In this document: positions 8,454 to 30,445 of the stretch, in pieces
Layout of the letters: the number at the start of each line of letters is the position of its first letter
Numbering within the stretch: the stretch's first letter is position 1
Assembly: GCA_021800365.1 (NCBI GenBank)
Contig: JAJYZA010000002.1
Location: forward strand, 33,187-97,186
DNA from: Nanobdellota archaeon
GTDB taxonomy: Archaea > Nanobdellota > Nanobdellia > Parvarchaeales > Parvarchaeaceae
Length of the DNA: 64,000 nt
Direction of reading: 5' to 3'
Translations under genes and position numbers: made by a program
The notes under the pieces: model-generated
Told to the model about the DNA's origin: nothing
Seen by the model: the letters and a program-made list of their open reading frames with translations, nothing else
The model's database searches: none

Positions 8454-9200
8454 CTAAATCATTACTTTCCTCGAGAATAACATGAATGCGGTGTGAGTTA
8501 AGCCATCACTCTGTGGTCTAAGGATATCTCTATTAAGCTCTACTTTCCAATCATTTTCAATAACCGTCATAAGACGTTCTACTTTTAATGTATCTGGTAA
8601 CTCCTTGATAGTTTTTTCAATTTGTATTATGGATGGAGAATATGTGCAGATTCGTGCACCAATTTTCATGACCTTAGCAACAAGTCCAACTACTTTCCAT
8701 GGATCGGGCATATCCAGAAGAACAAAATCAAATGCCTTCTCTTTGATGCCGTCTTTTATATCTGCGTTTATTATTTTTACATTGTCAAGACCAAAAAGCT
8801 CAATGTTCTTTTTTGCCACCTTTGCAAAGTCTTTTCTTATTTCATATGAGATTACCCGCCCATTTCTAGCCACCGACGCCAGTACGCAGGTCGAAAAGCC
8901 AGAACCCGTGCCAGCTTCAAGTATTTTACTGTAGGATTTTATACCAGAATAAGCAATTATACTTCCTAAGTCTTTCAGCGTTATTATTTGTGGTAATCTT
9001 ATTATTTTTTTAATCAAATCCGATGCGGTTGGCTCTATTACAAAAAATTTTATCCCCTTATGAGTTTTTACTTGTGACCCTATCTTTGCCTTTTTAAGAT
9101 CTGAGGAGTGCAAAATTCCGAATTCTGTATTAAAATCTTTTGATGGGTCGACAAAGAACGCAGCACTTTGATTTATAAGAAATAATCTTTTTTCCATCAT
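8454..9200 (-). CDS. trmI: tRNA (adenine-N1)-methyltransferase TrmI/Gcd14-like SAM-dependent methyltransferase.
   Basis: It has the EAGTGSGFST SAM-binding motif I, a DMPDPW motif, and a length of about 250 aa. Confidence 0.55.
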   Translation of the reverse strand: MMEKRLFLINQSAAFFVDPSKDFNTEFGILHSSDLKKAKIGSQVKTHKGIKFFVIEPTASDLIKKIIRLPQIITLKDLGSIIAYSGIKSYSKILEAGTGSGFSTCVLASVARNGRVISYEIRKDFAKVAKKNIELFGLDNVKIINADIKDGIKEKAFDFVLLDMPDPWKVVGLVAKVMKIGARICTYSPSIIQIEKTIKELPDTLKVERLMTVIENDWKVELNRDILRPQSDGLTHTAFMLFSRKVMI

Positions 9201-10012
9201 GTCATCTTTATAAAATTTATTGAGTTTCCATATCCGGAATAGTCAATTATCTTTCTTGCAGTCGTTAAAACAAAGATTACGGTTTTGTATGCCGTTGCAT
9301 ATCCAGCAAATTTTATTAGGTCTTTTTTTGTTATGCTTATTTTCTTGGATACTATAACGACAACGCGTAATTTATTTTGCCCATAATCGCAGTAATAAAT
9401 ATCCGGTTCTATCCGCATCGCGCCACTAAAACCATAATTTAATAGCATGTTTTTTATCTCAGGAGTTAGCGGTTCCGCTACTTTTAATCTTGTTTCTTCA
9501 TTCAGTTTTTTGCTTTCTCGCGCAATAGCAGTTTTTTGATTTATTTTTTCAGGTTTTTTGCTCTGGTTAAGGAACGCGCTTACATCTTCTAAGGAAAGAG
9601 TATAATAGTAAAGTAAATCGATTTTCTGTTTTGTTTCCGAATCTTGTGCGCTTATCGTTTTTATGAAGTCCGTCAAGGATTTTGAGATATACCTCTCTGC
9701 AGGCGTTAGTGTCGCAGAATTAATTACTTTCGTAGCCTTTATCTTTGAGACAAGTGCCTTTTCTTCTGTACTTAAAATATTATATAGCATTTCCATTGCA
9801 GCATCCCGATTTTTTTCTAAATAATAAATTGCAGAAGTTCCATAACGCCTATCGGATCGCTGCAATTCCTTTTTAGCAACAAAATAATCTAGAATTGCAG
9901 AAGTTTGGTCACTGTCACGACCAATATGTTCCGCTATATCTACAGTAAGTGCAGGTTTTCTTGCGATAAAATCCATTATTTTTGAATGGATATCATCTAT
10001 TTCTGAAGCCAT
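9197..10012 (-). CDS. Hypothetical protein with an N-terminal winged-helix-like region.
   Basis: It is a 271-aa ORF whose start is translationally coupled to trmI. No specific family was recognised. Confidence 0.3.
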   Translation of the reverse strand: MASEIDDIHSKIMDFIARKPALTVDIAEHIGRDSDQTSAILDYFVAKKELQRSDRRYGTSAIYYLEKNRDAAMEMLYNILSTEEKALVSKIKATKVINSATLTPAERYISKSLTDFIKTISAQDSETKQKIDLLYYYTLSLEDVSAFLNQSKKPEKINQKTAIARESKKLNEETRLKVAEPLTPEIKNMLLNYGFSGAMRIEPDIYYCDYGQNKLRVVVIVSKKISITKKDLIKFAGYATAYKTVIFVLTTARKIIDYSGYGNSINFIKMT

Positions 10013-10231: not shown

Positions 10232-10762
10232 ATGGACAAAAAAGGACAGGTTTTTACAATAGATTTACTGATCGCAATATTTATTTTTACGCTTATATTT
10301 ACTTCCGTAGTGGTTTTTCTTTTCTCAATAGGCGCGATATCCAGTCAGTACTCCTCTTATTACGCACAGACAATATCCGTCTCGCTAAATAGCATTGCTT
10401 CTTCCGCGATCAATACGCTTGTTGGTTCTCAGGGTACTCCAATAAATTGGTCATCGGCACCGTGCAGCTCCATAAAAACGGTAGGGATTATGTATAATTA
10501 TTACGAAGCGAGTCCACAGAAACTGTACAATCTAACGACTCTCCCCGTTGCATGCTTGTCGCAGCTTCTGCGAGCAGGAGATTCATTTAATATAACTACA
10601 AGTTATCTAAATGGAACCCCATTAAAGGTAAATGGGGCAGTGATAACCGCCGGTTTTTTTATACCGCAAAACCCGGCTTACATTACCTCAGTACAAAGAT
10701 TTGTCGTATTATACCCCGGTAAAGATATAATACGCATGAGCTTTTCAGAGTGGTTACAATGA
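10232..10762 (+). CDS. Archaeal type IV pilin-like protein with a class III signal peptide.
   Basis: The N terminus MDKKGQVFTIDLLIAIFIFTLIF has a KG/Q prepilin peptidase site followed by a hydrophobic helix. The mature part has many NxS/T sequons. Confidence 0.55.
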   Translation: MDKKGQVFTIDLLIAIFIFTLIFTSVVVFLFSIGAISSQYSSYYAQTISVSLNSIASSAINTLVGSQGTPINWSSAPCSSIKTVGIMYNYYEASPQKLYNLTTLPVACLSQLLRAGDSFNITTSYLNGTPLKVNGAVITAGFFIPQNPAYITSVQRFVVLYPGKDIIRMSFSEWLQ

Positions 10763-11514
10763 AAGGACAGGTATTTACTATAGATCTAGTGTTAGGCGCG
10801 GTAATAATATTGTCAATTATTGGAAGCGCGTACTCTTTATCGGCTTATTACTCCTCCTTGAGCCAGATAACTATAAGTAATGGAAATCTAGTTAGTGAAG
10901 TTTCTTCAGCCATAACGGCTTTTGTAACGGCTAATTCAACTAGGGATAGCATAGAATATTTTCAAAGCTCGAGCGGCGCGACAGCGTTCTTTACTAGTTT
11001 TACAAACAATATCACACAGAGCCTTGGGCAGGAACTTAACTTCCCTTATTCAATTTCAATATATACGATTGGGAACTATACAAATGGAGAATTAGTGCCA
11101 AACTTACTGCTTTTTAGTTACGAAACACCTGCTTTTGTTAGCGGGGCGCCCTCTATTTCTTTTTATGAGCCGATTGTCGTAACGCAGCAGACTTCTGCAT
11201 GCCGCAATACCTGCAATTTCTCATTACAAGCAGGTAGCATTTTTATCGGCGAGAACGCGACGCTAAACGCAGCAAAATGTAATATATACTCACTTACAGG
11301 GGCCAAGCTAGTAGTCGGTAGCTGGCACGTTTTTAATAACACGCCGACTGGTTATTGTACGCTCGAGGCGCCAAAATATCCTAGCGTTGGAGGTACACCA
11401 AAGAGCTATCTTGTCAAAGCCTATAATCTCGGAGGAACATTTATAGGCAACACGACTTTACACACTATGGGATTAGATTTAATACAGATAGAGGTACAAG
11501 CCTATGGCTCGTAA
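10750..11514 (+). CDS. Archaeal type IV pilin-like protein with a class III signal peptide. It is a paralog of the preceding gene.
   Basis: The N terminus MVTMKGQVFTIDLVLGAVIIL repeats the same KGQVFTIDL motif, and the DNA is also conserved. It overlaps the upstream gene by 13 nt. Confidence 0.55.
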   Translation: MVTMKGQVFTIDLVLGAVIILSIIGSAYSLSAYYSSLSQITISNGNLVSEVSSAITAFVTANSTRDSIEYFQSSSGATAFFTSFTNNITQSLGQELNFPYSISIYTIGNYTNGELVPNLLLFSYETPAFVSGAPSISFYEPIVVTQQTSACRNTCNFSLQAGSIFIGENATLNAAKCNIYSLTGAKLVVGSWHVFNNTPTGYCTLEAPKYPSVGGTPKSYLVKAYNLGGTFIGNTTLHTMGLDLIQIEVQAYGS

Positions 11515-13636: not shown

Positions 13637-13850
13637 ACTAATACTTCACGGTTTTTCATAACAATAAACTATTAAGTTATCTTTCGTTATTTAACTATAA
13701 GAATGCGCATTTATAGGTTAATTTTAACTATGAAACTACGCTATAATAGTTAAATATTTATATAGATAAATTAATCTATTATAATCGACAGTGCTTACCG
13801 AGAGAATCTAGCAGGAAACTGATTAATATAATACGACACCATTAATACTT

Positions 13851-15536
13851 ATGACGGAATATCAGTTGGGAAGAAAATTTAACGATGCTTTTAAGCAGAC
13901 AGCTTTAGGTGTCTCAATTGGAGAACAGAATCAACTAGCCGAATTTGCAAAAGTGCTTAGAAGCGGTGCCCAGATGGCTGAGATAGATCTAGCTAGTCTT
14001 TATGGTTTTACAGGAAACGGGACTCCAGCCACAAGAATGGGTAAAACAGAAAGGGAAGCCTTCGGGAACCTTGCAAAGACAAATCAGGCAGATTTAAGCA
14101 TACACGCACCGTGGTCTATAAATCCCTCTGGGATAAATCCGCAGTCCGGTGAACGGGACATGGAATATATGGCGCTTATGAAGAACGAGATGAAGGCGGC
14201 TATAAATTTTGCAGATGACGTTAGCAAGAGCATGGGAAAGCACAACATGCCAATAATATTTCATGCGGCTTCGGATCATTTCGGAAACCCGGATCCAAAA
14301 TTAAGATTAATTGCATATGACAATGAAGCGGATAAGATATTTCCAATAAAAGAACAGAAATTAGACAATATGACCGCAGAAAAATTCAGGCAATTATATG
14401 GAGATGATACTTATAATCGTGTAAAGATTGGGTTAAAACCGTCGGAAGACGGCAAAGGCATAATTCTAACGCCGGAAGCTGCGTTCCAGTTTCAAAAAGA
14501 TCAGCTTAGGATAAATATGAACCAAGAGAGAGTAAACCTGGAAATAAATCAAAGAGAGCTCGAAATGCAGAAATTTAGGTTAGTCAATGAACTTGCCGAA
14601 GCATCTGCGGGAGGGGACTTGGCACGTATAGATAAATTAAATAAGACCAAAGACGCATATGACCAGATGTTAAAGGACTTAAATGTTAGGAAAGACAGGA
14701 TTGATAACGGGATAGAACACATAAATGAGCGACTTGTAAGATATGATGAAAAGGCACCATTGTTAGCGGCAGAAGGAATAAAAGATGCTGCACTAATGTC
14801 CGCAAGATCTACGACAAAGCCGATGATATTGGTAGAGAATACGATGACGCCAGAAATGTCGCTTAGTAAGCCAGTGGATGTAGCGAAGGCAGTAGAACAA
14901 GCAAGGCGTCTTTTTGTTGATGCCGCGACGAAAGACGAGAAATTGAACTTATCCAAATCCGATGCTGAAGACTTGGCGAATCAACTTATAGGGGTAAATC
15001 TCGACGTTGGACATCTTAATATATTCAAGTCTTATGGGTTGGACAATAGAAAGATAGTTTCAATGCTAACGGAGCAAGGAAAGCTAGATGATAAGACGCG
15101 TGTAAGGCTTGCGGATTACATAAAAAGATATCATCTTAATGACAATATGGGAGATATAGACGCGCACTTGCCACTAGGTGAGGGCACCACTCCAATAAAA
15201 GAAATTTACGAGACACTAAGAAATGCCGGAGTTGAGGCTCCCGCAATAATGGAAGTCTTTGGTGGGCAAGGCGGCATAGAGGCGGGTATGACTCAGTCAC
15301 TAGAATACCTCGGAGCGCCGATATACGGCGATGTGCCATTTACGAGCCTTCCGACTTACGCCGCAAATCCATATTCGTCTATAATAGGCGATTACTCTCA
15401 TTATTCAAATCTCGGATTAAGACAGGACCTGTTTAGCTATGGTGGCTTCACAGGCTTGTCTCCGATATTGGGGGGTGGTTACATGGAGAACACGCGCGGA
15501 GGCGGAGGGGGCTTTTCTGGCGCACCCATGGCTTAA
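13851..15536 (+). CDS. Endonuclease IV (Nfo)-like xylose-isomerase-fold TIM-barrel protein. It has a large internal coiled-coil insertion and a Gly-rich C-terminal tail.
   Basis: Nfo-like metal-site motifs appear in order: SIHAPWSINPSG, IIFHAASDH, LVENTM, NLDVGHLN, and YHLNDNMGDIDAHLPLGEG. A roughly 250-aa charged, heptad-like insert sits between the second and fourth motifs. The protein ends GGGYMENTRGGGGGFSGAPMA. Confidence 0.45.
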   Translation: MTEYQLGRKFNDAFKQTALGVSIGEQNQLAEFAKVLRSGAQMAEIDLASLYGFTGNGTPATRMGKTEREAFGNLAKTNQADLSIHAPWSINPSGINPQSGERDMEYMALMKNEMKAAINFADDVSKSMGKHNMPIIFHAASDHFGNPDPKLRLIAYDNEADKIFPIKEQKLDNMTAEKFRQLYGDDTYNRVKIGLKPSEDGKGIILTPEAAFQFQKDQLRINMNQERVNLEINQRELEMQKFRLVNELAEASAGGDLARIDKLNKTKDAYDQMLKDLNVRKDRIDNGIEHINERLVRYDEKAPLLAAEGIKDAALMSARSTTKPMILVENTMTPEMSLSKPVDVAKAVEQARRLFVDAATKDEKLNLSKSDAEDLANQLIGVNLDVGHLNIFKSYGLDNRKIVSMLTEQGKLDDKTRVRLADYIKRYHLNDNMGDIDAHLPLGEGTTPIKEIYETLRNAGVEAPAIMEVFGGQGGIEAGMTQSLEYLGAPIYGDVPFTSLPTYAANPYSSIIGDYSHYSNLGLRQDLFSYGGFTGLSPILGGGYMENTRGGGGGFSGAPMA

Positions 15537-15538
15537 AT

Positions 15539-16324
15539 ATGGATGAAAATAAAGAAGAAGGAAAACTTATTTTGAGGGGCTACGATGCGGCATTTAAGTT
15601 TGCTAAAGGAATATTTTCTGCGTATCCAAAAATAATAAAGACCATAGCACTTTTTGGTTCTTTTAGCAAAGGAAAAGAGACAGAGAACAGTGACGTTGAT
15701 ATTATGATAATAATGGATGATGTGCTGAACAATCTCGACAATACTATTTTAGGGCCATTTTATGGCACAGTGGACTCTCTTTTAAAAGAAGAGAAATCAA
15801 TAAAGCTGCATATAAACTTCGTTACTCTTACGGCTTTCTGGAGGGGGGTGTTATCAGCAGATCCTCTATCTATCAATGTTCTAAAGTATGGCGTACCTCT
15901 TATAGATACTGGTTACTTTGAACCGCTACGCGTGCTTCTTCTAAAAGGAGAGATAAAACCTACGGAGGAATCAATTTATGCCGCAATGTCAAGAAGCCAG
16001 TTATACTCAGATTCAGCCAGATTACGGATGGCGGGTGCAATTACTGACTTGTATTGGTCCGTAATAAATTCGGCGCAGGCGGCAATAATGAGACATGGAG
16101 AAGTGCCTCCCTCCCCAGAAACGGTAGGAGGGATGTTAGAGGATCTACAACGTATGCATCTTATAAATAACGAGGAGTTGCTTACGTTTAATGATATATT
16201 TGTACTCGGTAAAAAACTTCTTCATGGCGAAAAGATAGAAGTGAGTGGAACGGATTTCGATAAATTTCTAGTAAGAGCTATGCATTTCAATGAGAAGATG
16301 GCAAAATTACTGGAAAATAAATAA
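15539..16324 (+). CDS. Pol-beta-superfamily nucleotidyltransferase (MNT/KNTase-like) with a C-terminal helical domain.
   Basis: LFGSFSKGKETENSDVDIMII matches the GS...DxD NTase motif. A roughly 150-aa helical C-terminal domain follows. Its start lies 3 nt after the upstream stop. Confidence 0.55.
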   Translation: MDENKEEGKLILRGYDAAFKFAKGIFSAYPKIIKTIALFGSFSKGKETENSDVDIMIIMDDVLNNLDNTILGPFYGTVDSLLKEEKSIKLHINFVTLTAFWRGVLSADPLSINVLKYGVPLIDTGYFEPLRVLLLKGEIKPTEESIYAAMSRSQLYSDSARLRMAGAITDLYWSVINSAQAAIMRHGEVPPSPETVGGMLEDLQRMHLINNEELLTFNDIFVLGKKLLHGEKIEVSGTDFDKFLVRAMHFNEKMAKLLENK

Positions 16325-17297: not shown

Positions 17298-17654
17298 ATG
17301 GATTTAAACAGAAAGGCACAAGGCCTTCCTATTAATACTATAATTCTTATAGCCATTGGACTTTTGATCTTAGTACTTTTCATAACCTTCGTTTTAGGCG
17401 GTTTTAAGGGCATTGGTGGCGGTACAAATCCGACAACTCAGGCAATGTCTTCTTTCGGCGCCCAATGTACAACTTACTGCTCAGAAGCGACTCCCGGTCA
17501 AATTCCTTACCAGTTCTGCGGTGCAACGACTAGTATAAATGGCGTCCTTTATACCTGTTTAAATCAAACTGCAGCGCAACAGACGTGCACTGTTCCATCA
17601 GCTTCTGGCGGCAGTTCAATAACTTATAACACCACGCTTTGTTCTAAAGCTTAA
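17298..17654 (+). CDS. Small secreted Cys-rich protein with a pilin-like class III-type signal peptide.
   Basis: The N terminus is MDLNRKAQGLPINTIILIAIGLLILVLFITF. The C-terminal half has 7 Cys and NxT sequons. Confidence 0.35.
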   Translation: MDLNRKAQGLPINTIILIAIGLLILVLFITFVLGGFKGIGGGTNPTTQAMSSFGAQCTTYCSEATPGQIPYQFCGATTSINGVLYTCLNQTAAQQTCTVPSASGGSSITYNTTLCSKA

Positions 17655-17726
17655 AATTCAATGCTGTTAGTACTAAAATTCTAACTTGAGACTTACCTTT
17701 TTATACTAAAAATTCTAAAAATAATC

Positions 17727-18350
17727 ATGGCTAAGACAAACACTTTCATGCTGGTTTTTAGCGTAATACTCTTAGTTCTGATAGCCATAGGCGTTTTCTA
17801 TGTTTTTGGAACGCACCTCGTTGCAATAAATACATGCGGCGGGAACAAAACGCTAGTGGTATTCAATAACAAAGAGTCTTGCTTTCCAAGTCTTTCCAAT
17901 ACAATAATTGCCAATGGCACGCCATATACGCTAAATTCATCACTGGCGGTGTCAAATGGCAGGATAATACCTCTAGATATAAGATTTATCGGAAACAATC
18001 CACTACTATATATATGGAACCAAAACAAGTCCTATAATGCAAGTTCTTACGTGTTCCTCACTATCCCGGATACGTTTAAAGTACACATGCAATACGCTTC
18101 TAATGTAACTACCGAATATATAATAATGACAAATGAACAATACATAAATTGGTATAATTCAAATGAGCGCAGCACTTCAAACGTGTATTCGCAAAGTGGT
18201 ACGGCAATCTCTGCGTGGTTTAATGAGAGTGCCGGTTGCGCAGGTTATGTAGCAGTAATAAAATCGGTTTCCGGGAGAGCATTCTTTATTAGGCCGAATG
18301 AGACTGCACTGTATGCTCCCGCTAATACCTCAACTGGTATATGTACTTAA
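17727..18350 (+). CDS. Secreted or membrane-anchored glycoprotein-like hypothetical protein.
   Basis: It has an N-terminal TM/signal anchor and many NxS/T sequons in the extracellular part. Confidence 0.35.
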   Translation: MAKTNTFMLVFSVILLVLIAIGVFYVFGTHLVAINTCGGNKTLVVFNNKESCFPSLSNTIIANGTPYTLNSSLAVSNGRIIPLDIRFIGNNPLLYIWNQNKSYNASSYVFLTIPDTFKVHMQYASNVTTEYIIMTNEQYINWYNSNERSTSNVYSQSGTAISAWFNESAGCAGYVAVIKSVSGRAFFIRPNETALYAPANTSTGICT

Positions 18351-18399: not shown

Positions 18400-19017
18400 A
18401 TGGAAATGGACGTTTTTGATGCAATAAATGAATTAAAGAAATTCTATGACGGCAACGGTACACTGGCTGGCCTTAAGGGCATGATTTCTGCAAAAAAATT
18501 GAATATTGATTTAGAATATCTCGATGGTGCCGTTAGACTAAGAGTATTACATCCACTTCGGCTTTACGTTGATGAGATATACAAAATTCTCCTTAGACTC
18601 TGGATAATAAATTCTATAGAAATTACCGTAGAATTTATGACAAACGGGAAGAAGAAAAGTGTCACTAAGAAGTTTGGCGCGGAAGAAAATGTAAAAGAAA
18701 CTATAGATGATCTACTCGAACTTCCGCACGAACAATTATTGGATATTATATTAGAGACAGAATATTTTAAACTTGTAGAAGTAAGAGACCTAAGTGATAC
18801 GGTCTCTATAATAATAAAAAAAGGTGATCAAAAATTACTTTTTAGGAGCCTCTATAACTATCTGTTCCCGTTTGTTAATGTACCAATCGACAAATCTGCA
18901 AAGGAAGAAATTATTTTCAACCAGGCTGGTGATGAATTAGCCGTAGACGTTTCCATATATGCAGATGGCTCGTCTGCTGGCGTTAAATCTAAAAAAGTAA
19001 AGATACTTAAAGTATGA
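18400..19017 (+). CDS. Hypothetical protein. It is the first gene of the KaiC-like/GTPase/Roadblock operon.
   Basis: It is 205 aa. Its stop overlaps the next start (ATGA), which indicates translational coupling. Confidence 0.4.
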   Translation: MEMDVFDAINELKKFYDGNGTLAGLKGMISAKKLNIDLEYLDGAVRLRVLHPLRLYVDEIYKILLRLWIINSIEITVEFMTNGKKKSVTKKFGAEENVKETIDDLLELPHEQLLDIILETEYFKLVEVRDLSDTVSIIIKKGDQKLLFRSLYNYLFPFVNVPIDKSAKEEIIFNQAGDELAVDVSIYADGSSAGVKSKKVKILKV

Positions 19018-19682
19018 GCGGAATAATGACAGGTTTTCCTTCTTTTGATAATTTAGTGTCCGGATTGGAGCCGAGAAAAACTTATCTTTTGAGCGGAAAT
19101 AAAGACAGTGGCAAGGAAGATTTCGTTTACAAGCTAACTGCATCCGCATTGAACAGAGAGATTGTCGTCGTGTACGTGACAACAAATAGGTCAAATACCG
19201 ATTTGATCATGGACTTTTCTTCTAAAGGATTAAAGTTATCACAGTATTTGGGCACTAGCATGTTAATACTTGATGATTTTATAAGAAGCGTATCCCCACA
19301 GGCAACAGATAACACGTATACAAAGGTGTTAAATGGCCCTTTAGACCTTACCGGTTTATCCGTCGCATTATCAAATGTCAACAATGGTTTTCTTAAGGAT
19401 GGAAAGACAGTACTTAATGTATTTGATTCGATATCTGCGCTCCTTCTCTATAACAATACAGTGACAATGTTTCGCTTTCTACAATTTGTATGTGGCAGAG
19501 CAAAGATATCGGGAGTAACGACGCTATTGATGCTAGATGATGAGATGCATACGCCGCAGGTCAACGAAACCATAAAATCTCTTGCGGATTCAGTAATTAC
19601 TTTAAAACTAGATGAAGGTAAAAGGTATTTTATGGTATCTGGCGGTGCAAAAGAAGTACTAAGCTGGACATCATTGCAGTGA
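19014..19682 (+). CDS. KaiC/RecA-superfamily (FlaH-like) domain protein with a degenerate Walker A.
   Basis: TGFPSFDNLVSGLEPRKTYLLSGNKDSGKEDFVYKL aligns to the KaiC TG.PGLD..LGGGLP.G...LI.G.PG.GKT region. The motif here is GNKDSGKE, so the Ser/Thr is replaced. Confidence 0.45.
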   Translation: MSGIMTGFPSFDNLVSGLEPRKTYLLSGNKDSGKEDFVYKLTASALNREIVVVYVTTNRSNTDLIMDFSSKGLKLSQYLGTSMLILDDFIRSVSPQATDNTYTKVLNGPLDLTGLSVALSNVNNGFLKDGKTVLNVFDSISALLLYNNTVTMFRFLQFVCGRAKISGVTTLLMLDDEMHTPQVNETIKSLADSVITLKLDEGKRYFMVSGGAKEVLSWTSLQ

Positions 19683-19694
19683 GCTTAAGGCGAT

Positions 19695-20912
19695 ATGGAA
19701 AAAAATAGTATAAAAAATGATCCGGTATTTGGCATAGGCAAATTAGATGAGGATTTAGAAGGCTTCCCTTATAATAAATTAGTGCTTCTGTCAGCTTCAC
19801 CCGCGGTAGGTAATGAGGTTTTTGGCTACCAAATAATCTTTAATAACCTGGCACATAAAAATAAGGTCCTTCTTTTTCTAAACAGAACTTCTCCTCAATC
19901 TTATATTACGGAGATGAAAGAGTATGATTTTAAGCCAGCTACAGATCTTGTTATAATAGACTCTTATAGCAGTGTTACGGGAATAAATGCGACTGAGACA
20001 CCGCTAAATAAGATGATAGCAAATCCCTACGATGGAACTGAAATAAAGAAAAAATTATTGGATGAACTAGACAAAAATTATGATGTTGTTGTACTAGATT
20101 CACTTTCTTTGCTTATAGATTCATTCGATTTTGATTATGTTCTATCATTGATAGGCGCGATAAAAGCGAAAATCTCAACGAAAAAATCCTCCGTCGTGAT
20201 GCTTTTCACGGATTGGGAATACGAGCAGGAGAACGTCAAGAAACTATTTACAGCAGTGAATGCACAGATAGATATAAAGGGTGTCGAAAAGAGAGTCATA
20301 TTTGGTCAATACTTCGCGGTCATAAAATGCGATTGGGTCAATAAAACTAGTTTTTCCTCAGCGTTGTTTAAGGCTATAAAACCTGGTGGGATAAAGATCT
20401 ATTTTCCAAAGATACTGATTACCGGGCCTACGGATGCAGGTAAAACTTCCTTTATACACAGTGCGTCGAAAGATGCCGTTAGCGTCGATAGGCTCGGGGG
20501 CACCATCGCACTCGATCATGGAAACCTCGATTTGGAAGGTTATAAGGCAGATTTATTCGGAACGCCCGGTCAAGAAAGATTTGACCCTCTATTGAAATTG
20601 CTTGGAGGAGAAGCCATCGGGGTAATACTAATTGTAGATTCTTCGCGGCCAGACCAATTTCCGAGGGCCATAGAGATGCTTAGAAAGACGGAAACCTACG
20701 GATTACCAATAGTAGTCGTTGCAAACAAAGCCGATCTTCCGAACGCATTACCTCTGGAAGAATTGAGAGAAAAGCTACATCTCGGCAAAGACGCACCACT
20801 AGTTGCCACTGTAGCGGAAGACCTATCCAAAATCGATCCAAATGAACCGACTAAGTTAAAAGAGAAGGGGGTGCGTGAGGCATTGATGGCTTTGTTTAAG
20901 CAATTGACATAA
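19695..20912 (+). CDS. Fusion of a degenerate KaiC/RecA-like domain (N-terminal) and an MglA/Ras-like small GTPase (C-terminal).
   Basis: The N-terminal half resembles KaiC (LVLLSASPAVGNEVFGYQI) but lacks a P-loop. The C-terminal half has G1 ILITGPTDAGKTS, a switch-I Thr in GGTIALD, a G3 of FGTPGQ, and a G4 of VANKADL. The G3 is of the TxPGQ type, as in MglA. Confidence 0.5.
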   Translation: MEKNSIKNDPVFGIGKLDEDLEGFPYNKLVLLSASPAVGNEVFGYQIIFNNLAHKNKVLLFLNRTSPQSYITEMKEYDFKPATDLVIIDSYSSVTGINATETPLNKMIANPYDGTEIKKKLLDELDKNYDVVVLDSLSLLIDSFDFDYVLSLIGAIKAKISTKKSSVVMLFTDWEYEQENVKKLFTAVNAQIDIKGVEKRVIFGQYFAVIKCDWVNKTSFSSALFKAIKPGGIKIYFPKILITGPTDAGKTSFIHSASKDAVSVDRLGGTIALDHGNLDLEGYKADLFGTPGQERFDPLLKLLGGEAIGVILIVDSSRPDQFPRAIEMLRKTETYGLPIVVVANKADLPNALPLEELREKLHLGKDAPLVATVAEDLSKIDPNEPTKLKEKGVREALMALFKQLT

Positions 20913-20944
20913 TGCTTAAATTAGGCAGGGGTTATAAATAGCTT

Positions 20945-21322
20945 ATGGCTACAAAATCAGATGCTTTGAGACTGGTGTTAGAAGGTTTGGGTAATGTAGG
21001 TGGCATACGCGCCTCCGCGATAATATCAGTGGACGGTCTTCCGATGGTATCCCTAATGCCACAGGATGTAGATCCCAACAACTTTGCTGCAATGCTAGCG
21101 TCAATGGTAGGTGCGGCTGAAACTGCGCTGAAATCTCTTGGCTCCAAAAATATCTTAGATCGAGTTGTAGCCGAATCAAAAGATGTGAGAGTAATTGCCG
21201 TAAAGGCCGGTGAAGATACTATACTTACCATTATGATAGACCCAAATACTAATTATGGCTTGGTGCTTCTCGAAGCGAAAAAAGCTTCTGATGAAATTGC
21301 AAAGATAATGAAAGGGCAATAA
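20945..21322 (+). CDS. Roadblock/LC7 (MglB-like) domain protein.
   Basis: It is 125 aa. It has the GIRASAIISVDGLPMVS and TIMIDPNTNYGLVLLEAK pattern typical of Roadblock/LC7 proteins. It lies directly downstream of the small GTPase gene. Confidence 0.5.
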   Translation: MATKSDALRLVLEGLGNVGGIRASAIISVDGLPMVSLMPQDVDPNNFAAMLASMVGAAETALKSLGSKNILDRVVAESKDVRVIAVKAGEDTILTIMIDPNTNYGLVLLEAKKASDEIAKIMKGQ

Positions 21323-30286: not shown

Positions 30287-30370
30287 ATTATGCTTATGGC
30301 GTTTGGTTTATTCTTATAATTTAAGTCTTTTGGTATATTTAACACTTTATCCAATCGTATTGCTATAACG

Positions 30371-30445
30371 TGGGGCAGCTGGGATTTGAACCCAGGACAG
30401 CGTGAGCCCTAGTCACGCATCATAACCAAGCTAGATCACCGCCCC
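30371..30445 (-). tRNA. tRNA-Pro. The anticodon loop CTAGGGC reads AGG at positions 34-36. CCA is not encoded.
   Basis: The sense sequence is GGGGCGG-TG-ATCT-AGCTTGGTTA-TGAT-G-CGTGA-CTAGGGC-TCACG-CTGTC-CTGGG-TTCAAAT-CCCAG-CTGCCCC-A. It is 75 nt with a canonical cloverleaf. Confidence 0.75.

Follow-up and report, generated by a model that had tools for sequence, protein, structure and literature searches.

Two protein folds that are already known, a TIM barrel of the endonuclease IV kind and a nucleotidyltransferase (NTase), are encoded next to each other in a 64,000-nucleotide stretch of DNA from a Nanobdellota archaeon (contig JAJYZA010000002.1, positions 33,187 to 97,186; the whole stretch is hereafter called the window). 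Endonuclease IV (Nfo; PDB structures 1qtw from Escherichia coli, 3aam from Thermus thermophilus, and 2x7w from Thermotoga maritima) has a nine-ligand pattern in common with the barrel protein of the window, but counts 285 residues in E. coli against 561 here. Following Hosfield et al. in 1999, the E. coli enzyme is said to hold three zinc ions through H69, H109, E145, D179, H182, H216, D229, H231, and E261; residues of matching type are present at these nine positions in the sequence of E. coli K-12. MJ1311 of Methanocaldococcus jannaschii (PDB 3wqo, 'D-tagatose 3-epimerase-like protein', no assigned function) is a plain barrel of 293 residues, 17% identical to the barrel protein, and has neither its 156-residue insertion nor its Gly-rich tail. 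The 2014 paper on its structure reportedly noted the nine Nfo ligands. In sugar 3-epimerases and isomerases (DTEase, IolI, UlaE), one Mn/Co site is formed by four residues (E, D, H, E), and of the nine ligand positions, epimerases with this fold need no more than four. For the NTase, the counterparts are kanamycin nucleotidyltransferase (KNTase)/ANT(4') and ANT(9)/AAD(9), which have the same fusion of an MNT domain with a helical domain, and the type VII pair MntA/HepT, which combines the same two folds, MNT and HEPN.

What is new in the window is the architecture of barrel, helical arm, and tail, and the conserved partnership of this protein with an NTase of the MNT-HEPN type. We consider it highly probable that the anatomy of the two proteins and the conserved operon that they form are as described here. 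The barrel protein (561 amino acids) is encoded by an open reading frame at 13851-15536 and the NTase (261 amino acids) by one at 15539-16324, both on the forward strand of a window whose GC content (about 37%) is that of low-GC archaeal DNA. Only the two letters AT separate the stop codon of the first (TAA, 15534-15536) from the ATG of the second, a spacer of 2 nt where a preceding analysis made from the letters of the DNA (the sequence-only reading) had counted 3. Judging from the nucleotide sequence, the NTase gene is translationally coupled to the barrel gene. The features of the locus are as follows.

13637-13850, no strand: AT-rich intergenic region of 214 bp, divergent, between the ABCE1 gene (- strand) and the barrel gene (from the sequence and the map of open reading frames); presumed promoter region
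13851-15536, + strand: barrel gene, 561 amino acids; Nfo/MJ1311-like TIM barrel with insertion and tail, predicted metallo-phosphoesterase
13908-14273, + strand: N-terminal half of the barrel (residues 20-141); H85 and H138 end the predicted strands 81-85 and 134-138
14274-14741, + strand: insertion after strand 4 (residues 142-297), a small beta sheet with a helix (152-206) followed by a helical hairpin
14472-14717, + strand: arm formed by the helical hairpin (helices 208-254 and 257-289 in the predicted secondary structure)
14742-15260, + strand: C-terminal half of the barrel (residues 298-470), with E329-N330, D385-x2-H388, H428-x2-D431-N432, D437-x-H439, G443-x-G445, and E468
15261-15533, + strand: tail (residues 471-561), rich in Gly, Ser, Tyr, and Pro, predicted to be disordered and ending in FSGAPMA
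15539-16324, + strand: NTase gene, 261 amino acids; matches to PF01909 and PF18765, homologues in Parvarchaeota 60-79% identical
15539-15958, + strand: NTase domain of the MNT type (Pol-beta fold), residues 1-140, with invariant G40-S41, D52-x-D54, and D60-D61
15959-16321, + strand: HEPN-like four-helix C-terminal domain, residues 141-261, with an invariant PPSP loop (190-193)

The sequence-only reading had seen in the first protein a TIM barrel interrupted by a giant coiled coil of about 250 residues and closed by a Gly-rich tail. The barrel is supported by a match of residues 373-487 to PF01261 (AP_endonuc_2, the xylose isomerase-like TIM barrel; 55 bits for a cutoff of 31.1). When residues 142-295 are deleted, the match spans positions 9-230 of the 249 in the profile; restoring a near-full match in this way indicates a complete barrel with the additional residues truly inserted after its strand 4. 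The structure was modelled with AlphaFold2 from an alignment of 25 sequences (predicted template modelling score 0.75; 280 residues with a predicted local distance difference test [pLDDT] value of 90 or more). The model is a (beta/alpha)8 barrel, which superposes on solved members of the xylose isomerase-like superfamily. Its insertion begins with a small sheet (152-172 and 195-206) and a helix (176-194), continues with a long antiparallel helical hairpin (208-254 and 257-289), and is followed by a helix (298-318) that leads back into the barrel. A large helical insertion is thus present, but its size had been overestimated: 190 residues lie between H138 and E329, of which about 156 (142-297) are truly inserted. 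Similarly, the long helices of the presumed coiled coil exist, but they form a hairpin arm of about 80 residues that is preceded by the small beta sheet (152-206). In a shuffle test of heptad periodicity, the score of helix 257-289 was reached by 0.3% of the shuffled sequences and that of helix 208-254 by about 51%, which leaves significant periodicity to the second helix only. The insertion is charged, as had been noted (35% of its residues, compared with 25% in the whole protein). In Foldseek searches, the arm resembled helical hairpins and coiled coils weakly and in a generic way (CHMP3, and ClpC chains at low probability).

The tail is Gly-rich, as described before, and ends in GGGYMENTRGGGGGFSGAPMA. 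Gly, Ser, Tyr, and Pro make up 47% of it, and the pLDDT is below 50 over residues 470-561, which are predicted to be disordered. When each GTDB species was scanned through one representative genome, at least 530 stretches encoding relatives of the protein came up. The 80 best were analysed; they are titled Parvarchaeota, Woesearchaeota, Pacearchaeota, Nanoarchaeota/Nanoarchaeia, or unclassified archaeon. Among these 80 species-level homologues, the distance between the residues equivalent to H138 and E329 varies from 181 to 318 amino acids (median 247), and all 80 have a tail of 71-96 amino acids after E468, commonly ending in SGAPMx or SGTPNx. The sequence of the arm is poorly conserved and only its pattern is kept. 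The terminal peptide of the tail is conserved, P490, F533, G541, and G557 are invariant in homologues down to 25% identity, and G513, Y515, and Y518 are nearly so. A representative protein library contains 461 clusters of the family (clustered at 50% identity, E ≤ 1e-30); the best 150 of them have 266-706 amino acids, with most being full-length proteins of about 560-706 amino acids, and every full-length member among those listed has both arm and tail.

The motifs of the predicted metal site occur in the order of those of Nfo, as the sequence-only reading had stated: HAPWSIN (H85), FHAAS (H138), VENT (E329), DVGHLN (D385 and H388), and HLNDNMGDIDAHLPLGEG (H428, D437, and H439). They are not the product of chance: seven of the nine candidate ligands (H85, H138, E329, D385, H388, H428, and E468) are found in 80 of 80 homologues, some of which are only about 25% identical, and so are N330, D431, N432, G443, and G445. 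The pair D437-x-H439 is present in 58 of the 80 sequences and replaced by H-x-E in the other 22. This second version (EHTELP) belongs to one subclade and is a reciprocal swap of ligand types; the window has DAH at the corresponding positions (15159-15167, residues 437-439). The swap keeps one His and one carboxylate, which is as expected if both residues bind metal. Alignment to E. coli Nfo with hhalign puts D385, H388, H428, D437, and H439 on D179, H182, H216, D229, and H231, and E468 on E261 as well as on the equivalent Glu of another PDB chain named 'probable endonuclease 4'. The remaining three, H85, H138, and E329, were assigned by their invariance, by their position at the ends of strands, and by the alignment to MJ1311, in which HAPW is aligned with VHAPF. 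When the family without its insertion was forced into a global alignment (hhalign) with Nfo of E. coli, the register shifted by one beta/alpha unit, and this alignment was rejected as evidence for the N-terminal ligands. In the AlphaFold2 model, all nine candidate ligands lie at, or just past, the C-terminal ends of successive strands. The barrel therefore appears to carry the full ligand set of the endonuclease IV type, six members of it mapped by alignment and three assigned by invariance and strand-end position.

Which branch of the fold this protein belongs to is suggested by profile comparisons. A profile search against the PDB gives MJ1311 an E-value of 2e-12 and a true Nfo one of 0.0096; by sequence profile and modelled fold, the closest solved relative is MJ1311 and not canonical Nfo. 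Similarity of fold alone does not separate the epimerase branch from the Nfo branch. The four positions used by epimerases are present in the protein, but inside the nine-ligand set, and the best epimerase profile scores 18 bits for a cutoff of 305. It had been proposed that profile searches might place the protein in a family of sugar isomerases or epimerases devoid of the Nfo metal ligands; the ligands are there. Trinuclear zinc sites, such as those of Nfo, P1 nuclease, phospholipase C, and the PHP domains, are phosphoesterase sites. The five positions that come in addition to those of epimerases (H85, H138, H388, and D437/H439) are strictly conserved, which argues for a multinuclear phosphoesterase site of the Nfo type. 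We regard it as somewhat probable, from these sequence comparisons, that the chemistry of the barrel protein is that of a phosphoesterase.

The motifs GSFSKG...DVDIMII, quoted in the sequence-only reading as those of an NTase, are present in the second protein, and its PF01909 and PF18765 matches score 36 bits, above the respective cutoffs (21 and 26.9). Among 22 homologues with identities as low as 33%, none departs from G40, S41, D52, D54, D60, and D61, and with these catalytic residues unchanged the NTase should be active. The same homologues share an invariant linker motif (FW..G.P...N...G.PL.D.G.F.P) and the PPSP loop. The C-terminal domain, an up-down bundle of four helices, can be superposed on HEPN structures, and the suggestion of a KNTase-like protein with a possibly HEPN-like end was right: the folds are MNT and HEPN, combined as in KNTase. 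No Rx4-6H RNase motif is conserved in the HEPN domain among the 22 homologues. The protein does not fall into one of the named families, as it scores 27.9 bits with the MntA profile (cutoff 60) and 14.7-16 bits with those of the ANT families (cutoffs 340-350). In some loci of Woesearchaeota and Pacearchaeota, another member of the NTase family, a paralogue of greater length, is encoded 1-3 kb downstream (L030:7368-8528, L032:6816-8777, L056:6310-7446, and, on the - strand, L031:8559-9719 and L062:8425-9591). It has the FW..G.P and PP[ST]P motifs in common with the shorter protein and extensions at both termini.

We searched all open reading frames of the loci of the barrel homologues with hidden Markov models (HMMs) of both proteins. 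There were 74 loci with enough flanking sequence, each representing a species, and in 68 of them the NTase gene lies on the same strand within 1.5 kb downstream of the barrel gene. The coupling of the two genes proposed for the window thus extends to its relatives, and the opposite outcome that had been envisaged, that they would never occur together in related genomes, was not observed. The distance from stop codon to ATG is -4 to +5 nt in all 22 Parvarchaeales and mostly 10-120 nt elsewhere, and the pair is kept at 25% identity while the other neighbours change. Nearly all species representatives of the Parvarchaeales have the same order of genes: ABCE1 (-), barrel, NTase, VIT1 (-), DUF211 (-), and the KaiC-like genes. 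The 64-kb window and each of the fetched loci yielded a single copy of the pair, and no fusion of barrel and NTase was found among the 150 best representatives (at most 706 amino acids). The PADLOC and PHROG models gave no match to the barrel protein, and for the NTase only generic matches to the MNT core. The conserved, non-mobile synteny and the wide spread across an archaeal class indicate a vertically inherited housekeeping operon and not a mobile toxin-antitoxin or defence module. This argues for the pair being the core of such an operon, specific to DPANN archaea of the Nanoarchaeia type (Parvarchaeales, Woesearchaeales, and Pacearchaeales). A search of the literature found no paper that describes the barrel family, the gene pair, or the operon.

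The explanation that we favour overall, and hold tentatively, is that this housekeeping core combines a phosphoesterase and an NTase that act in sequence on one phosphate-bearing macromolecule. The barrel protein would be a cytoplasmic, metal-dependent phosphoesterase with the nine-residue trinuclear ligand set of Nfo, whose arm and tail may serve to dock it, either on a partner or on a large substrate, and would have no part in catalysis. The NTase would be a catalytically intact MNT-HEPN fusion with the architecture of KNTase, and both enzymes would take their turn on the same molecule. The version of this that we prefer is the processing of nucleic acid ends, in which the barrel would hydrolyse a phosphomonoester or phosphodiester, e.g., a 3'-blocking phosphate or an abasic site, and the NTase would then add one or more nucleotides to the hydroxyl thus exposed. 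This specific scheme on nucleic acid is possible but doubtful. We know of no described counterpart to a chemistry in which a trinuclear phosphoesterase is followed by nucleotidyl transfer.

A number of observations weigh against this explanation or parts of it. The insertion carries a net charge of about -3, and arm and barrel are mildly acidic (isoelectric points of 5.3-6.4), not basic; an arm that binds RNA or DNA might be basic, and this counts against nucleic acid binding. The 2014 structure paper on MJ1311 reportedly found no DNA-binding groove, and small molecules or proteins are frequent substrates of enzymes of the KNTase type. The ligands H85, H138, and E329 cannot be aligned to Nfo by sequence, and the predicted metal loop (431-445) has low pLDDT. 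In Nfo, Tyr72, which is part of the motif H-x2-Y-[LIVMF]-[IM]-N, intercalates DNA; the equivalent residue is Trp in the 22 Parvarchaeales (HAPWSIN), and the other sequences among the 80 mostly have L, I, V, or M there. Finally, the NCBIfam profiles of Nfo do not match the protein, either in full length or without its insertion, even at E ≤ 10, and membership in the canonical Nfo family does not hold.

The last two observations, together with the preference of the PDB search for MJ1311, also speak against reading the protein as an orthodox endonuclease IV with lineage-specific decorations, i.e., as the abasic-site (AP) endonuclease of base excision repair in this organism, with an NTase that is unrelated or loosely related to it. 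This reading draws on the Nfo type of the ligand set, on the resemblance of motif 1 (HAPWSIN, compared with HDSYLIN) and of motif 3 (HLNDN..D.H..LGEG) to Nfo signatures, on the name 'endonuclease IV' given by JGI to several members of the family, and on a 2009 survey that listed MJ1311 as a predicted archaeal homologue of EndoIV (PMC2770678). It leaves unexplained why arm and tail are conserved in all listed full-length members and why translational coupling to the NTase is found across the class, and we find it unlikely. A small-molecule pathway would account for the source annotations as 'sugar phosphate isomerase/epimerase' and for the weak matches with fructoselysine 3-epimerase and CbiR, a phosphodiesterase of cobamide remodelling. 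Here, the barrel would be an isomerase, epimerase, or phosphodiesterase of a sugar or sugar phosphate, and the NTase would nucleotidylate the same metabolite, e.g., in salvage or in the remodelling of surface glycans or lipid head groups. Yet epimerases do not need the five additional ligand positions that are strictly conserved in this family, a soluble metabolic enzyme would not normally be expected to have a helical arm or a disordered, conserved tail of about 90 residues, and the matches to specific families are all far below their cutoffs. This makes such a pathway distinctly improbable.

The remaining alternative is a regulatory, toxin-antitoxin, or defence-like pair of the type VII MNT/HEPN kind; the sequence-only reading had listed the defence and toxin options. 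The NTase would AMPylate the barrel protein, e.g., at a Tyr or Ser of the tail, and thereby switch a potentially toxic nuclease. The NTase core indeed resembles MntA, the MNT-like models of candidate defence systems in PADLOC (PDC-S09), and the structures of MNT, HalB, and DrrA; Tyr, Ser, and Gly are conserved at certain positions of the tail, G513, Y515, and Y518 being nearly invariant; and tight coupling of genes is typical of toxin-antitoxin pairs. Several features set the locus apart from MntA/HepT. The MntA score remains below its cutoff, one chain comprises both MNT and HEPN, the latter without Rx4-6H, the partner is a TIM-barrel enzyme that has no PADLOC or PHROG match, and the locus is not mobile. 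The synteny beside ABCE1 in nearly all representatives of the Parvarchaeales, the presence in three orders, and the single copy per fetched locus would be unusual for mobile toxin-antitoxin or defence genes. With vertical inheritance and synteny conserved across the archaeal class, we consider a pair of this kind quite unlikely, least of all one that is mobile and serves defence or as a toxin, which we rank below every other reading. AMPylation could still have a regulatory role without toxicity.

Outside the Parvarchaeales, the two genes have further neighbours. An orphan gene of about 500 codons (P500) lies upstream in 35 of the 47 loci of Woesearchaeota, Pacearchaeota, and related archaea that have enough upstream flank (e.g., L006:1112-2626, L007:2373-3863, and L003:3097-4611). 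A protein search gave 749 relatives of P500; the source names among the matches listed are all 'hypothetical protein', and the organism names are only Nanoarchaeota, Woesearchaeota, Pacearchaeota, or unclassified archaeon. It has many invariant aromatic residues (among them Y85, W187, W248, and W280), and no significant match in Pfam (the best, with an E-value of 0.056, does not pass the cutoff), PDB, PHROG, or PADLOC. Neither tblastn nor an HMM built from 38 sequences detected P500 in the window or in the flanks of the Parvarchaeales loci, so that the core module consists here of two genes. Between P500 and the barrel gene there is usually a gene for a charged, apparently disordered protein of about 200 amino acids (e.g., L030:3301-3945 and L003:5329-5970). 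These genes were considered as a single family, which was rejected since they fall into many unrelated sequence clusters; their position is conserved and their sequence is not. Pair, P500, and variable charged protein in the Woesearchaeales and Pacearchaeales might together constitute an unrecognised multiprotein machine specific to Nanoarchaeia, a proposal that we regard as a long shot. In such a machine, the helical arm and the disordered tail would assemble the complex. A new system for the end-healing and tailing of RNA or DNA is one possibility, and another is the salvage or remodelling of host-derived molecules with phosphodiester links.

The genomes of DPANN archaea are very small, and most of the conserved genes specific to their lineages have no known function. 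A pair that has been kept linked, in fixed order, in apparently hundreds of species of Parvarchaeota, Woesearchaeota, and Pacearchaeota is probably important for their biology. The predicted trinuclear site of the endonuclease IV/MJ1311 type is extended by this family to a new architecture, in which a barrel has a helical arm and a conserved tail predicted to be disordered, and the orphan branch of MJ1311 gains its first consistent genomic partner, an NTase. An 'unknown TIM barrel' thereby becomes a concrete hypothesis of two enzymes that lends itself to biochemical tests. Should the pair turn out to repair or tail nucleic acid ends, or to salvage molecules from a host, its function would be relevant to the maintenance of these obligate symbionts.

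Proteins identical to the 561-residue barrel protein are encoded on nine public contigs, where their name at JGI is 'sugar phosphate isomerase/epimerase', and close relatives are named Candidatus Parvarchaeota and include BJBARM4_0670 of ARMAN-4 and CSMARM5_0090 of ARMAN-5, which assigns the window to the Parvarchaeota, a DPANN lineage. The open reading frames on the opposite strand within the barrel gene (e.g., 14549-14956, - strand) are assumed to be spurious. Scans with Rfam models and for tRNAs found no RNA element near the locus, and two open reading frames in its surroundings have no Pfam match (9197-10012, - strand, 271 amino acids; 18400-19017, + strand, 205 amino acids). The locus is flanked by several small proteins with N-terminal hydrophobic segments of the archaeal pilin/class III signal type, such as MDKKGQVFTIDLLIAIFIF, which are encoded at 10232-11514 and 17298-18350 and are syntenic in other Parvarchaeales. 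One of them has a sub-threshold match to DUF7287 (21 bits, cutoff 27). Further downstream, at 19014-21322, three consecutive genes encode a KaiC-like ATPase (222 amino acids), a fusion of a KaiC-like domain and a small GTPase of the Arf-Ras type (405 amino acids), and a Roadblock/LC7 protein (125 amino acids). This trio, syntenic in ARMAN-4 too, looks like a GTPase module of the MglA/MglB type joined to KaiC-like ATPases. Elsewhere in the window, tRNAs with A34 being rare in archaea to our knowledge, a gene for tRNA-Pro (30370-30445, - strand) has the anticodon loop CTAGGGC, with the anticodon AGG and thus A at position 34.

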